DNA from: Rhodocista pekingensis
Lineage (GTDB): Bacteria; Pseudomonadota; Alphaproteobacteria; Azospirillales; Azospirillaceae
Reading direction: 5' to 3'
NCBI RefSeq assembly: GCF_042665545.1
Contig: NZ_JBHTCM010000010.1
Location: 323,672 to 347,671 of the forward strand
DNA length: 24,000 nt
Shown: positions 12,753 to 20,078 of the stretch, piece by piece
Position numbering within the stretch: the stretch's first letter is position 1
How the letters are laid out: each line of letters starts with the position of its first letter
Notes under the pieces: model-generated
What the model saw: only the letters and a program-made list of their open reading frames with translations
The model's database searches: none
Told to the model about the DNA's origin: nothing
Translations under genes and position numbers: made by a program

Positions 12753-12880
12753 GCTTCCCGTCCACTCCACCCGGCCGGCCCCGGGCCGGCATCATCGACG
12801 GGGGAGAATGCCCCGCAGGCTGTCAGGGCTCAAGGCCTGGTTGCGGGATGCCGGACCGCGGGCAGCGCGGGGCGGCTTGC

Positions 12881-12925
12881 GGAAAAGAGTAAGGCGGGCC
12901 GCCGGGGCGTGGTCGGCGGCCCGCC
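12881..12925 (-). terminator. rho-independent terminator ending the collagen-like gene (left edge of the island)
   Basis: Perfect 12-bp stem GGCGGGCCGCCG (12893-12904) / CGGCGGCCCGCC (12914-12925) with a 9-nt loop. On the minus strand it is followed by TTACTCTTTTCC. Confidence 0.55.
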
Positions 12926-12940
12926 CGCACGGGCCGGGGC

Positions 12941-13861
12941 TCAGGACGGCGAGGCTTCGCCGGACAGAGGCGGCACGTACACCGGGACGGGCCAGAGCGC
13001 ACCGTCGTACCCGCTGCGGAACTCGACCACGGTTCCGTCGTCCAGCGTCGCCTCCCACTGGCCGTCATGGCTGCGGTGGCGGCGGCCATAGGCCGCCTGG
13101 AGCGCGCACATCAGATGCCCCTCGTCGTAGCGGTCGGGGAAGAAGACGCTCTCCCCCTGCTGGATCGTCCCCCCCTGGCGGTAGAGCACCATGCCCTTGT
13201 AGACCCCGGTATGGTCCGGAGCGCCGGTGATCTGCATCAGCCGGGCATAGGCCGGCGCCGGATCGGTTCCCTTCGGCCGCGCGACGAAGCCCTGGGTCTG
13301 GTTGCCCGTCCGCACGCCGCGGTAGAGCCAGCCCTTGCTGATCGGCGGCACCGGCTCCCCGGCGACGAGGCTCTCCTGGATGTAGTGGTGCGGCGAGTGC
13401 GGGGCGGGCGGCGTGATGAGGTCGGAGCCCGGCACCCTGCCCGGCGCCGTGATCGGCCTGCCGGCCCCCGGCATGGGCGACGGATCCACCCCCACGCCGG
13501 CAACCAGCATCGGACCGGGCGGTCCCGGCGGACCGGCAGGCCCCTGTGGCCCCGGCGGCCCGGGCAGACCCTGCGGGCCCTGGGGTCCGGGCAGGCCCTG
13601 GGGACCCTGGGGACCTTCCGGACCCTGCGGACCCTGCGGGCCTTCCGGCCCCTGGGGACCCTGCGGCCCTCCGGGTCCCTGGGGGCCCTCGCCGCCCGGC
13701 GGGCCGGAGGGACCGGGATCGCCCGGCGGCCCCGGAGGACCGGGAGGACCGGGAGGACCGGGAGGACCGGGAGGCCCCGGCGGCCCGGACGGCCCGGGCC
13801 GGGTGGCGCCCTGGGGCGTCCCGATCTGGATGACACCATGCACAGAAGCCTTGTCGCTCAT
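12941..13861 (-). CDS. collagen-like triple-helix repeat protein with a C-terminal ~170-aa globular domain; no signal peptide
   Basis: The ATG at 13861 is preceded by GGAAGGAGAAGCAAG (strong SD). The N-terminus is [22 protein letters not shown], followed by about 31 uninterrupted G-X-Y triplets (GPS GPP x7 GDP ... GPQ GPE ... GPP GPP). A non-repetitive C-terminal domain ends ...[23 protein letters not shown]...[21 protein letters not shown]. Confidence 0.85.
13511..13795 (-). repeat. Gly-X-Y coding tract with tandem 9-bp DNA units
   Basis: 9-nt periodicity runs throughout. There are four perfect tandem copies of GGAGGACCG at 13734-13769 (plus strand), and repeated ggaccctg(c/g)gg / ggccctgggg units across 13540-13690. 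Confidence 0.9.
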
Positions 13862-14009
13862 CTTGCTTCTCCTTCCGAAACCAGCAGGGAGACCGGGATC
13901 ACCTGGAAGGGCGCGCCGGCCTGCGGGCGGGCGGCGCACACGGAACGGTCGTCCCCGGTCTTCCCGGCCGGCAGTCCGTTGCCCAGGATCACCGGCCGCA
14001 AGTCCAGAA

Positions 14010-14037
14010 AAGATAACAGAAAATATCTGTCACGCAA
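14010..14037 (-). promoter_or_regulatory. candidate sigma70-type promoter for the collagen-like gene, with a palindrome in the spacer
   Basis: The minus strand reads TTGCGT-N16-TATCTT (plus-strand acgcaa 14032-14037, aagata 14010-14015). The spacer contains the palindrome ACAGA-N5-TCTGT (14016-14030). It lies in a visibly AT-rich patch (my count is 39 G+C in 14001-14100). Prediction by eye only. Confidence 0.3.
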
Positions 14038-18135: not shown

Positions 18136-18156
18136 GGTCGGCCCTCCCTCGCCGCC

Positions 18157-18552
18157 TCAACCCTGAAGATCGAAGTCGAACTCGACCTTGCCGTTGATCG
18201 GCCTGGAGAAGCGGGCGAGGAAGGCGTTCAGCATCTCGCCGGCGGACGGGCCGGAGCCGCCGCCCCGCTGCTGTCCCGGCTTGCCATCCATGATCATGGT
18301 CACCGCCCGGTCGACCGTGGGCGAACCCATGATGTGGTCGATGGCGCGTGCCGTGACCGCGCTCTGCGCCGTCCAGCTCTGCTGCTGCTGGTTCACCGAG
18401 TTCAGCAGCGCCTGTGACAGCCCCATGCTGTTGGTCAGCATAAGCGTCCCGAGGGCATAAGCCTGGGTGTCGGCCATACCGAAGGATGCCGAAGGGAAGG
18501 TGCTGTTGCTGATGTAGATCGGGCTGGTATCGAATGGGCCGGAGTTGTCCAT
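18157..18552 (-). CDS. distant RebB-like protein with N- and C-terminal extensions, 131 aa; first gene of the array
   Basis: The core ADTQAYALGTLMLTNSMGLSQALLNSVNQQQQSWTAQSAVTARAIDHIMG follows the same A.A...L......GLS....N.V..QQ......AVT pattern. A Gly-rich linker (QQRGGGSGPSAG) and a short C-terminal domain follow. GC3 is host-like and the SD is weak (AGGGAA). Confidence 0.6.
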   Translation of the reverse strand: MDNSGPFDTSPIYISNSTFPSASFGMADTQAYALGTLMLTNSMGLSQALLNSVNQQQQSWTAQSAVTARAIDHIMGSPTVDRAVTMIMDGKPGQQRGGGSGPSAGEMLNAFLARFSRPINGKVEFDFDLQG

Positions 18553-19112
18553 GGCTGTTCCCTAACCTTGAGTTATTTTGGGTATATATTGGCTAGCACG
18601 GCATTTTTGTCTTAACAACATGAAGTAATCGGTGAGTAGATTTCTCATTATTTGCGTTCACAACCTGCGTTTTGACAAACCCGCTCGCATTCTGACACTC
18701 ACACTGTCGATGGCTCTCGTCTTCCCGCCACTTGGCGTTAACCCGTATGGATATTTTGTGGACTCCAGTCGCTCGCCGGCGGATACAATGTCCACAGTTT
18801 GGCGCTCTGATCCGGCGACATTCCCGGCGATAGCGACAAATCAAGGTCGCAGATTCTACCCATGCAGGTTTTTTTTCTCCTGCTGCCCCCCAGGGCAATA
18901 GTGATCCGGACGCCGCGAACCCTCATAAGCCTGCACAGATGCACTTATAGCGCACTAGATCCGTCCTTGTTCTTTGGCGGAGCGTGAAAAACCACACTCT
19001 CTTCACGCTTCACGACTCTCGTTCAAAAACGTCGTTCGGTATGGCAGGTAGCTCTCGCTGCCGTTCGCCTCAAAAGAGATTACGTATGATATTGTCTTGA
19101 CGGGAGGTGCTC
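18553..19112. promoter_or_regulatory. AT-rich divergent control region between the reb array and the ECF sigma gene
   Basis: By my count, G+C is about 33% in 18601-18660 and 52-53% in three other 60-nt lines, against roughly 70% elsewhere. It contains the inverted repeat AGCGTGAA-N13-TTCACGCT (18981-19009), with TTCACG repeated in tandem at 19002-19014. A candidate minus-strand promoter reads TAAGAC-N17-CAATAT (plus 18586-18614). A T8 run sits in the hairpin GCAGG-N10-CCTGC (18864-18883). TATGAT lies at 19085-19090, upstream of the sigma gene. Confidence 0.5.
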
Positions 19113-20051
19113 GTGACTCATCACGCAGCGCGCGGGGGACGACCGCCTCTGGTTTCGACCCTGGATCTGCAATACGGCCGCAACTGTTCCGTCAGAGAGG
19201 AGCCTCTCCGCCCAGGGCTTTACCGAAGCGTCACTTTTCCCCAGATCAGTCGAATCAAGCCTACGCCTTGCCAGAACCATTTTTTGAACATCTGGCAGCA
19301 TAATCGCGCATATCTGCGGGCACTGGCCTATCGCTGGCTGGCCGGCAACACGGCCGACGTCGAGGACGCGCTGTCCGATGTCTTCTGCAAGGCCAGCAGG
19401 GCCTTCGATCAGGCGCAGGTCGGCATCGCCAACGAACGGGCGTGGCTGTCCCGGCTGCTGCACAACACCTGCATGGACGCACATCGGCGGCGGCGCGCCA
19501 CGGAGCAGGTGATCGCCCCCGCCTTCGAGGACAGCGACGAGACGGACGCCGCGGCCGAGCTGGGCGAGACGGCGTCGCCGGAGGACGAGCTGCTGAACCT
19601 GGAGCTGCGCCGCGTGCTGCACGGGGCCCTGGCCGATCTCCCGGAATCGCTGCGCGGCCCGGCCGTGATGCGGCTGGTGGAGGACGAGCCTTATGAGAGG
19701 ATTGCAGCCGCCTACAACATCAGTCTTGCGAATGCACGCAAACGCATCCAACTGGCCCGGGCCGCGCTGCGATCGCAACTGACCGGTTACCTGACCGCCG
19801 GGGAAGCCCCCCGTGCCGCAGCGGATGCCGTCGGCCCTGAGGTGCCCGGCGCCGCCGCTGCCCCCGTCGCGCCGGCCGTGGCGCCGGCCCCCTCGGCCGG
19901 TGCTGCCCTGGCGGCGGCGCGGGCCGCCATGGCCGCTGCCGCGTCGGCCCCGCCTCCCCCGCCGCCTGTCCGGCCGGCGGCGCCGGCACCGGACGGGGCC
20001 GCGGCCCCGCGGCGGCGCGGCGTGCTGACGATCCGCTTCACCATCGCCTGA
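19113..20051 (+). CDS. ECF-type (sigma-70 family group 4) RNA polymerase sigma factor with an Ala/Pro-rich C-terminal extension
   Basis: Region 2 is FLNIWQHNRAYLRALAYRWLAGNTADVEDALSDVFCKASRAF...WLSRLLHNTCMDAHRRR. Region 4 is LADLPESLRGPAVMRLVEDEPYERIAAAYNISLANARKRIQLARAALR. About 90 low-complexity residues follow (AAAPVAPAVAPAPS...APPPPPPVRPAAPAP...RRRGVLTIRFTIA). The GTG at 19113 is 5 nt after GGGAGG (the track starts at GTG 19107). Confidence 0.8.
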   Translation: MTHHAARGGRPPLVSTLDLQYGRNCSVREEPLRPGLYRSVTFPQISRIKPTPCQNHFLNIWQHNRAYLRALAYRWLAGNTADVEDALSDVFCKASRAFDQAQVGIANERAWLSRLLHNTCMDAHRRRRATEQVIAPAFEDSDETDAAAELGETASPEDELLNLELRRVLHGALADLPESLRGPAVMRLVEDEPYERIAAAYNISLANARKRIQLARAALRSQLTGYLTAGEAPRAAADAVGPEVPGAAAAPVAPAVAPAPSAGAALAAARAAMAAAASAPPPPPPVRPAAPAPDGAAAPRRRGVLTIRFTIA

Positions 20052-20078
20052 ACACGGCCCCCGCAGCCGGCGGCGGGG

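Follow-up and report, generated by a model that had tools for sequence, protein, structure and literature searches.

How does a set of R-body genes come to stand between two core genes of a chromosome, and does it work there as one unit? R-bodies are ribbons of protein, wound into a coil, which certain bacteria deploy against predators; few other bacterial protein machines are known to break membranes by mechanical force. The locus described here bears on the spread of their genes, on the way in which these are switched on, and on the toxin that may or may not accompany them. The window, the whole 24,000-nucleotide stretch of Rhodocista pekingensis DNA that was analyzed (overall G+C about 70%; its ThyA is 100% identical to R. 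pekingensis protein P0001), carries a block of R-body (reb) and other genes between thyA and folA. We consider it likely that this block is a 7.3-kb R-body island that was gained by an ancestor of Rhodocista into a short thyA-folA spacer and that acts as a developmentally induced unit. Compared with its counterparts in relatives, the locus can be viewed as showing two core genes before and after the arrival of an R-body module between them.

The two flanking genes lie in the same orientation, 7.3 kb apart. Pfam matches confirmed the coordinates and the shared minus orientation assigned to them in a first-pass annotation that was made from the letters of the sequence:

12180-12752, minus strand: folA (dihydrofolate reductase), left flank; Pfam DHFR_1, E 3.4e-48
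20079-20990, minus strand: thyA (thymidylate synthase), right flank; Pfam Thymidylat_synt, E 2.4e-107

That annotation had proposed an accessory island splitting a thyA-folA pair, and the proposal held when it was put to a comparative test. The closest relatives outside Rhodocista, L088, L098 (GCA_029267445.1) and L087, all with ThyA 84% identical, have the two genes adjacent, with gaps of 88, 72, and 0 bp, respectively, and their contigs contain no homologs of the reb, sigma, EndoU-like, or OrfA genes of the block. L088 and L098 share the gene order sspB-thyA-folA-EpmC-like-CBS-CGL, which in L088 runs on into mrp-hflK-hflC, and their FolA proteins, encoded next to thyA, are 78–81% identical to that of the window. 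In L087, sspB-thyA-folA is followed by other genes and then by mrp-hflK-hflC. The DNA alignment of the window with L088 stops at about position 12676 and restarts at 20057, and therefore the extra DNA corresponds in place to the thyA-folA spacer of L088, about 85–88 bp. Adjacency also extends further: folA was found directly downstream of thyA, within 150 bp, in 17 of the 80 loci fetched with ThyA, and the distant loci with this arrangement include Labrys, Sphingomonadales, and Kiloniellaceae. These gene orders support the view that thyA-folA adjacency is ancestral and that Rhodocista gained the reb block.

The spacer has also received other genes. Two Nitrospirillum-like loci, L007 and L099, have the same backbone, in which 2.7–4.6 kb of unrelated cargo separates thyA from folA (positions 10923-15361 and 10903-13499 of the respective loci). 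The cargo of this lineage comprises a DUF347 membrane protein, a beta-lactamase/TPR protein, and a nucleotidyltransferase, to which L007 adds an AT-rich 350-aa gene without a family match. Cargo has thus entered this spacer repeatedly, and the pair is not split in Rhodocista alone. The first-pass annotation had held that unrelated genes at this position in relatives lacking reb genes would speak against it; such genes are absent from the three closest relatives but present in the Nitrospirillum lineage. In L089, an Azospirillaceae metagenome-assembled genome, the region is rearranged. Relative to the family the block is accessory, and in the genus as sampled it is fixed.

Within the genus, Rhodospirillum centenum SW (CP000613; L001) carries the same block at the same site, colinear, with the same genes in order and 93.6% DNA identity, and several Sequence Read Archive (SRA) assemblies carry it with the same junctions. 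Junction positions are common to the window and SW, except that SW and L002 have 22 extra bases between the sigma gene and thyA. It follows that the block is not confined to one strain and is older than the split of the two Rhodocista species, which supports an old insertion at the level of the genus. The old or ameliorated acquisition (or a donor of similar G+C) suggested earlier fits both this colinearity and the near-host composition described below.

Whether the block works as a unit can be judged from published encystment expression data for R. centenum, with which a regulon covering the whole island lines up. In the main text of Dong and Bauer (2015; PMC4340629), RC1_1993-RC1_1999 were induced up to 50-fold in cyst development. 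The RNA-seq supplementary table of that study shows that the orthologs of the entire block are co-induced: RC1_1990, RC1_1991, RC1_1992, RC1_1993-1999 (the seven annotated R-body genes), RC1_2000 (annotated as hypothetical), and RC1_2001 all rise, with values of about 3–6.7, at the same cyst time points, whereas folA (RC1_1989) falls and thyA (RC1_2002) barely moves (PMC4340629). Since RC1_1990-RC1_2001 respond together and the flanking genes do not, the unit of regulation coincides exactly with the inserted block. R-bodies were noted at the time when R. centenum was described (Favinger, 1989, as cited in PMC3583457 and PMC4340629).

From the thyA side, the block consists of the sigma gene (plus strand), a control region, reb8 to reb1, an OrfA remnant, an AT-rich patch, the collagen/EndoU-like gene, and a terminator. 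Profile scans bore out the non-housekeeping content previously read from the sequence (a collagen-like protein, an IS3 OrfA, eight Reb paralogues, and an extracytoplasmic function (ECF) sigma factor) and added the EndoU-like domain, which had been missed. By coordinate, the features are:

12880-12926, minus strand: intrinsic-terminator-like hairpin at the block end before folA; 13-bp G+C stem, then CUUACUCUUUUCC, with a U-rich tail
12941-13861, minus strand: collagen-like/EndoU-like protein, 306 aa from ATG 13861; ortholog of RC1_1990; Pfam Collagen E 1.2e-12, and EndoU_bacteria
13958-14149, no strand assigned: AT-rich patch, possible promoter region of the collagen/EndoU-like gene; 100-nt G+C below 50%
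14161-14427, minus strand: IS3-family OrfA remnant, 88 aa; ortholog of RC1_1992; HTH_Tnp_1 E 8.6e-16
14483-14545, minus strand: 3' end region of the reb operon; 15-nt copy of TCCCTAACCTTGAGT (14531-14545), then a hairpin and a U6 run
14707-15252, minus strand: reb1, with a proline tail; ortholog of RC1_1993; RebB 45.8 bits
15278-15604, minus strand: reb2, 108 aa; RebB E 6.6e-22
15645-15971, minus strand: reb3, 108 aa; RebB E 2.4e-26
16124-16447, minus strand: reb4, 107 aa; RebB E 2.1e-29
16609-16968, minus strand: reb5, 117–119 aa; RebB E 1.1e-26
16995-17342, minus strand: reb6, 115 aa; RebB E 2.6e-25
17566-18135, minus strand: reb7, divergent RebB-family, 189 aa; RebB 30.3 bits
18157-18552, minus strand: reb8, divergent RebB-family, 131 aa, first of the operon; ortholog of RC1_2000; RebB 30.7 bits
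18553-19106, no strand assigned: AT-rich divergent control region between reb8 and the sigma gene, about 550 bp; includes the reb8 leader (18559-18573)
19107-20051, plus strand: ECF-type sigma factor, 314 aa; ortholog of RC1_2001; Sigma70_r2 and Sigma70_r4_2
20052-20078, no strand assigned: right junction, a 27-bp spacer on which the stops of the sigma gene and thyA converge

The eight open reading frames (ORFs) counted as reb genes, all within 14707-18552, pass the gathering score of RebB (PF11747), with 30.3–101.9 bits against a cut-off of 24 bits. Their proteins are 97–100% identical to those of SW, except for Reb8 (86%), and the Reb4 protein is encoded identically in SW and in many SRA assemblies. 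At the DNA level the block is far from uniform. Backbone genes diverge from SW by 2.7–5.9% (6–13% at third positions), whereas reb4 and reb5 are the same as in SW over their 678 nt and the divergence of reb2 and reb3 is 0.9%. Divergence reaches 7.4% in the sigma gene, 8.1% in reb8, 10.1% in the EndoU-like domain (more than half of it at non-synonymous positions), and 11.8% in the collagen repeats. Selection at the protein level does not by itself account for synonymous sites as static as those of reb2-reb5; their conservation would reflect either recent exchange between lineages or very strong selection on mRNA or codon use. The Reb1 tail (14707-14860) has 40 prolines in its last 51 residues, with length indels of 15 and 9 nt between strains, and Reb7 contains four 11-aa tandem repeats (33 nt each) at 17680-17818.

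An exact 15-nt inverted repeat, TCCCTAACCTTGAGT, brackets reb1-reb8 (18559-18573 on the plus strand and 14531-14545 on the minus strand). One arm is the leader and ribosome-binding region of reb8, 6 nt from its start codon. The other lies about 160 nt past the reb1 stop, just ahead of the hairpin and U6 run at the 3' end of the operon; this hairpin folds no better than shuffled sequences. Both arms are kept in SW, the 3' end copy is also present in L002-L004, and the leader arm is also present in L091 and L092. If both arms were carried on one transcript they would pair, which could mask the reb8 ribosome-binding site.

The protein encoded divergently from reb8 is recognized as an ECF sigma factor (TIGR02937 sigma70-ECF, 67 bits against a cut-off of 42.9, no region 3 match). 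Its regions 2 and 4 are preceded by an N-terminal extension of about 58 aa and followed by a C-terminal tail of about 85 aa that is rich in Ala and Pro. Homology reaches upstream of the NCBI start at 19284, and the 255-aa NCBI model drops the N-terminal extension. The tail (19797-20051) ends in RRRGVLTIRFTIA and varies in length between strains; it is missing from the reb-linked homologs P0123-P0125, while the extension is common to all. The tail could be regulatory. The closest sigma homologs are 55–59% identical, and two of them, in L091 and L097, adjoin reb genes. In both, the sigma gene (55%) is divergent from a reb8-like gene at the same position as in the window, followed by a reb7-like gene and canonical reb genes in the order seen here. 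More distant homologs (41–45%) stand beside rplS and trmD in Alphaproteobacteria, without reb genes. A metagenome scan with the sigma alignment returned just two weak, unrelated matches. In L096, the locus of the homolog with 59% identity, a trypsin-like serine protease gene (819-1538, minus strand) converges on the sigma gene and there is no EndoU-like gene at that place; this contig is too short to show the presence of reb genes. By analogy with other reb loci, the sigma factor is the obvious candidate regulator of the reb operon. The control region between the two has its gene-proximal parts 95–100% conserved in SW and its middle (18760-18960) only about 55–60% conserved; G+C over 18553-19283, which includes the start of the sigma gene, is 52%.

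At the far end of the block, the collagen/EndoU-like gene starts at ATG 13861 behind the Shine-Dalgarno sequence GGAAGGAG; the NCBI model covers only the last 189 aa. It encodes 32 consecutive, uninterrupted G-X-Y triplets (13508-13795) and an EndoU_bacteria (PF14436) domain at about 13061-13381, which scores 39.5–41.3 bits (cut-off 25.3). Strains differ in this gene by in-frame indels whose lengths are multiples of 3 and mostly of 9. We compared the domain with 14 canonical relatives (alignment A3), nearly all of which have the H...H pattern (GH[IV]xxGE ... G[FY]HxRPGG), P0144 alone being without the first motif. The core motifs RPxG, GVY, and SxFFPD are common to the window domain and these relatives. 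Both canonical N-proximal catalytic histidines, however, are replaced, by W and V in the window and by Y and V in the EndoU-like proteins of L091 and P0136. These N-proximal histidines are reported to be essential in EndoU enzymes (PMC7297114). Because both are replaced, we do not call the protein a nuclease toxin. Its sequence suggests that it is probably an EndoU-derived, non-catalytic accessory protein. No signal peptide, secretion or delivery domain, or adjacent immunity gene was found for it. An AlphaFold2 model of the domain was confident, and a Foldseek search with that model gave no significant match in the PDB.

The same kind of protein recurs with the reb-linked sigma gene elsewhere. 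L091 and L097 encode an EndoU_bacteria protein of 168–172 aa about 70 bp downstream of that gene, 37–38% identical to the C-terminal domain of the window protein. The Rhodocista homolog stands at the opposite end of the operon and has acquired a collagen stalk in addition. Members of the subfamily are few: when 1.84 billion representative proteins were searched exhaustively with HMMER, the domain gave 17 matches at E<=1e-3, two of them at E<=1e-10, and a word-indexed search found two Rhodocista proteins only. We take the EndoU-like protein to be part of the module, since its linkage outlasts rearrangement and its ortholog is co-induced with the reb genes.

Between reb1 and this gene lie the OrfA remnant and an AT-rich patch. 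OrfA covers only profile positions 1-82 of 369 of the NCBIfam transpos_IS3 model, and no ORF with a DDE domain, as expected for IS3 OrfB, follows it. No insertion sequence (IS) ends were recognizable, there was no DNA match to plasmid-borne IS elements, and protein matches were limited to the N-terminal 50 aa. The patch at 13958-14149 is about 95% conserved in SW and contains a sigma-70-like TTGAGA-18-AATACT on the minus strand (14073-14044).

The composition of the block and its ends agree for the most part with what had been seen by eye. Two AT-rich intergenic patches were confirmed by windowed G+C (39% at 14001-14100, and 33–58% per 60-nt line at 18541-19140), and in the whole 24 kb, 100-nt windows below 50% G+C occur only inside the block. 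G+C at third codon positions (GC3) is indeed host-like, and slightly lower, in the block genes (0.82–0.95, compared with 0.885–0.948 in the backbone). The clearly AT-rich parts are only intergenic. With regard to host codon preference, reb4 and reb5 fit fully, while reb1, reb6, the sigma gene, and the EndoU-like gene fit less well. The strong terminator described at the left end is real: its 13-bp stem and U-rich tail, about 130 bp ahead of folA, form a hairpin of -31 to -33 kcal/mol with a z of -2.0 relative to shuffled sequence. At the right end, the 27-bp junction and its hairpin exist as described, yet the hairpin cannot be retained as a terminator candidate, with z values of -0.9 and +0.2 that are no better than those of shuffled sequence.

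Several observations weigh against the island reading, or at least against parts of it. Regarding the mode of insertion, a computational search of the block junctions found no direct or inverted repeat longer than 8 nt, in agreement with the first inspection by eye, no integrase or recombinase family matched any of the scanned block genes and ORFs, and no att site was found. The relatives with an empty site are metagenome or draft contigs, and their closeness was judged by protein identity and not by a species tree. L091 and L097 are metagenomic contigs, from samples SRR28211881 and SRR27026600, so closely related that they count as one independent lineage. The EndoU-like gene and the reb genes are not contiguous, since the IS3 remnant and the AT-rich patch lie between them. 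No anti-sigma gene accompanies the sigma gene, which has the convergent thyA after 27 bp and the control region upstream. No promoter motif common to the upstream regions of reb8, the sigma gene, the EndoU-like gene, and internal reb genes (with those of L091 and L097) could be defined; the reb8 leader was the only robust conserved element in this search, and one candidate motif, CGTTTTSACAAAMC, was not enriched (3 matches, 1.2 expected). Because a shared promoter motif and an anti-sigma gene are both missing, we infer sigma control of the reb genes from analogy and co-expression. Finally, we found no published report of R-bodies in R. pekingensis itself.

The alternative that survives best is that two or more insertions built up the block, one of reb and sigma genes and another of an IS3-delivered collagen/EndoU-like gene, so that their adjacency would be historical and not functional. 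The OrfA remnant and the AT-rich patch lie exactly between reb1 and the EndoU-like gene, and with both intervening a two-step assembly is possible. Likewise, this gene has a promoter-like site of its own and evolves faster (10.1% divergence from SW against 0–0.9% for reb2-reb5). Nevertheless, we regard a merely historical adjacency as improbable. An EndoU_bacteria homolog is linked to sigma and reb genes in L091 and L097 too, in another order, R. centenum induces RC1_1990 together with its reb genes, and in a subfamily with so few members chance co-occurrence in two lineages is unlikely.

Much less probable, in our opinion, is that the block is ancestral family backbone that was deleted in relatives, which would make thyA-folA adjacency secondary. 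Coding composition is nearly that of the host, the block edges carry no mobility genes, and other genes separate thyA from folA in two lineages, Rhodocista and Nitrospirillum, all of which would suit that view. However, the three nearest relatives have thyA and folA side by side, as do distant Alphaproteobacteria and other phyla, the cargo of the Nitrospirillum lineage bears no relation to the reb block, and the reb-sigma-EndoU module of L091 and L097 sits in another context, with a gene other than thyA converging on it. It is hardly credible that the block still moves, or moved recently, as an element of its own, for instance as a composite transposon or an integrative element. In favor of this are the IS3 OrfA, the exact 15-nt inverted repeat around reb1-reb8, and the 100% identity of reb4 and reb5 between species whose backbone is 3–6% diverged, which could reflect recent exchange. 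But the single IS gene is truncated, without a transposase catalytic domain, and internal rather than at the edges, there is no integrase, target-site duplication, or flanking repeat longer than 8 nt, the junction positions are common to both species (save the 22 extra bases), and one arm of the repeat is the reb8 ribosome-binding leader, kept in a lineage in which the other arm was not seen.

We therefore return to an R-body island gained by the Rhodocista ancestor. Recombination in the conserved flanking genes would be the most economical idea for its route of entry. As to its working, the sigma gene would be read divergently from the reb operon across the AT-rich control region of about 550 bp. 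Nutrient deprivation and encystment would induce the sigma factor, which would in turn direct transcription from reb8 to reb1 on the minus strand. Transcription may then run through the OrfA remnant and the collagen/EndoU-like gene, or these may be co-activated, and it would end at the terminator before folA. The canonical small Reb proteins (reb2-reb6) would polymerize into the coiled ribbon, with the products of reb1, reb7, and reb8 and the collagen/EndoU-like protein as putative accessory or assembly components, and the ribbon would presumably serve against predators.

A more specific proposal is that the collagen-stalked EndoU-like protein is an R-body cargo or effector in this lineage, made along with the ribbon and freed in the predator phagosome as the R-body unrolls, where it would cut or bind host RNA non-canonically. 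We consider this doubtful. The triple-helical stalk and the polyproline tail of Reb1 might possibly tether the cargo to the ribbon or pack it with the ribbon. If true, it would parallel the reb-cluster-dependent cleavage of ribosomal RNA in Caenorhabditis elegans fed Pseudomonas aeruginosa PA14, where genes of the reb cluster promote that cleavage (PMC8322103). In any case, a rare, active-site-degenerate EndoU-like protein beside a reb-linked sigma factor provides a candidate partner of the R-body in a genetically tractable host.

The surroundings of the block were also inspected. The thyA-folA-hflK backbone named in the first-pass annotation is present, although four genes intervene between folA and hflK: an EpmC-like gene, a PALP/CBS-domain gene, a Cys_Met_Meta_PP gene, and mrp. 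The EpmC-like gene (11516-12157, minus strand, 213 aa) has a sub-threshold match, 22.8 bits against a cut-off of 23.8. It lies directly downstream of folA and is kept in L007, L088, L089, L098, and L099; among relatives a small gene sometimes parts it from folA, and L087 is without it. Small genes of toxin-antitoxin or Uma2 type, including HTH_31, BrnT, Uma2, PemK, and YjhX, are wedged between backbone genes in L088 (11531-11779 and 13972-14541) and L098 (6212-6749 and 10762-11019), and the whole thyA-hflK stretch seems permissive to small insertions. Just upstream of thyA is a permuted, two-piece alphaproteobacterial transfer-messenger RNA (tmRNA) gene (21099-21456, plus strand; Rfam RF01849, 252 bits), followed on the plus strand by sspB and then tfoX. 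Because these three occupy that stretch, a 365-aa ORF at 21400-22497 (minus strand), which overlaps them and has no Pfam match, was rejected as spurious. The tmRNA gene was likewise rejected as an integration site, being about 1 kb off, with thyA intervening and its 3' end directed away from the block.

Several known systems can be set beside the block. The P. aeruginosa PA14 cluster of rebP1P2, rebD, fecI2, rcgA, and rapA (Wang et al., 2021; PMC8322103) combines RebB-family genes with a dedicated sigma factor, as does the window. FecI2 is required there for rebP1 expression, and the cluster is accessory, missing from PAO1 (PMC8322103). PA14 differs in having the Crp-like RcgA, whereas Pfam scans of the block genes found no Crp or cyclic-nucleotide-binding family, and the block has many more Reb paralogues. 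The sigma factor of the window is likened to FecI2 by its place beside reb genes; its nearest relatives outside reb loci are those beside rplS and trmD. The reb operon of Azorhizobium caulinodans (Matsuoka et al., 2017; PMC5527310) is also alphaproteobacterial and chromosomal, and it is tightly controlled according to conditions, with PraR as repressor and RebR as an activator encoded at the locus; it differs in that this activator is of the Crp-Fnr family and not a sigma factor, and in having four reb genes (PMC5527310).

In the established type 51 system of Caedibacter taeniospiralis, rebABCD of pKAP298 (PMC3583457), tandem small RebB-family proteins likewise form the ribbon. That locus is plasmid-borne, with four genes, a RebC not homologous to the other Reb proteins, and no sigma gene; the block is chromosomal, with eight paralogues, three of them long and divergent (one with a proline tail and one with 11-aa repeats). 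With bacterial EndoU toxins (PF14436, such as the CdiA-CT of E. coli STECO31, PDB 5HKQ), the window domain shares an above-threshold match and the core motifs, but it is without both catalytic histidines and is fused to a collagen-like stalk.

The reb operon of R. centenum SW, RC1_1993-RC1_1999 (PMC4340629, PMC3583457), is orthologous to that of the window, with the same gene order and the same thyA and folA flanks. The two blocks differ in collagen repeat number, sigma tail, and control region. The horizontal spread of reb genes is known (PMC3583457; PMC13430693), as is the presence of sigma factors beside one class of reb loci, and Raymann et al. (2013) reported no genomic islands or mobile elements around reb loci (PMC3583457). 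The window thus holds an orthologous member of an R-body system already known in a sister species and not a new kind of system, and the gain is incremental. The R. centenum literature counts six or seven reb genes, whereas the window has eight above the Pfam threshold, including the ortholog of RC1_2000, and that literature does not include the sigma gene, the EndoU-like gene, or the thyA-folA insertion. What is new relative to the cited work is the insertion between thyA and folA with its empty sites in relatives, a regulon that extends over the whole insert, the count of eight paralogues, and a degenerate EndoU-like protein that recurs with the module.

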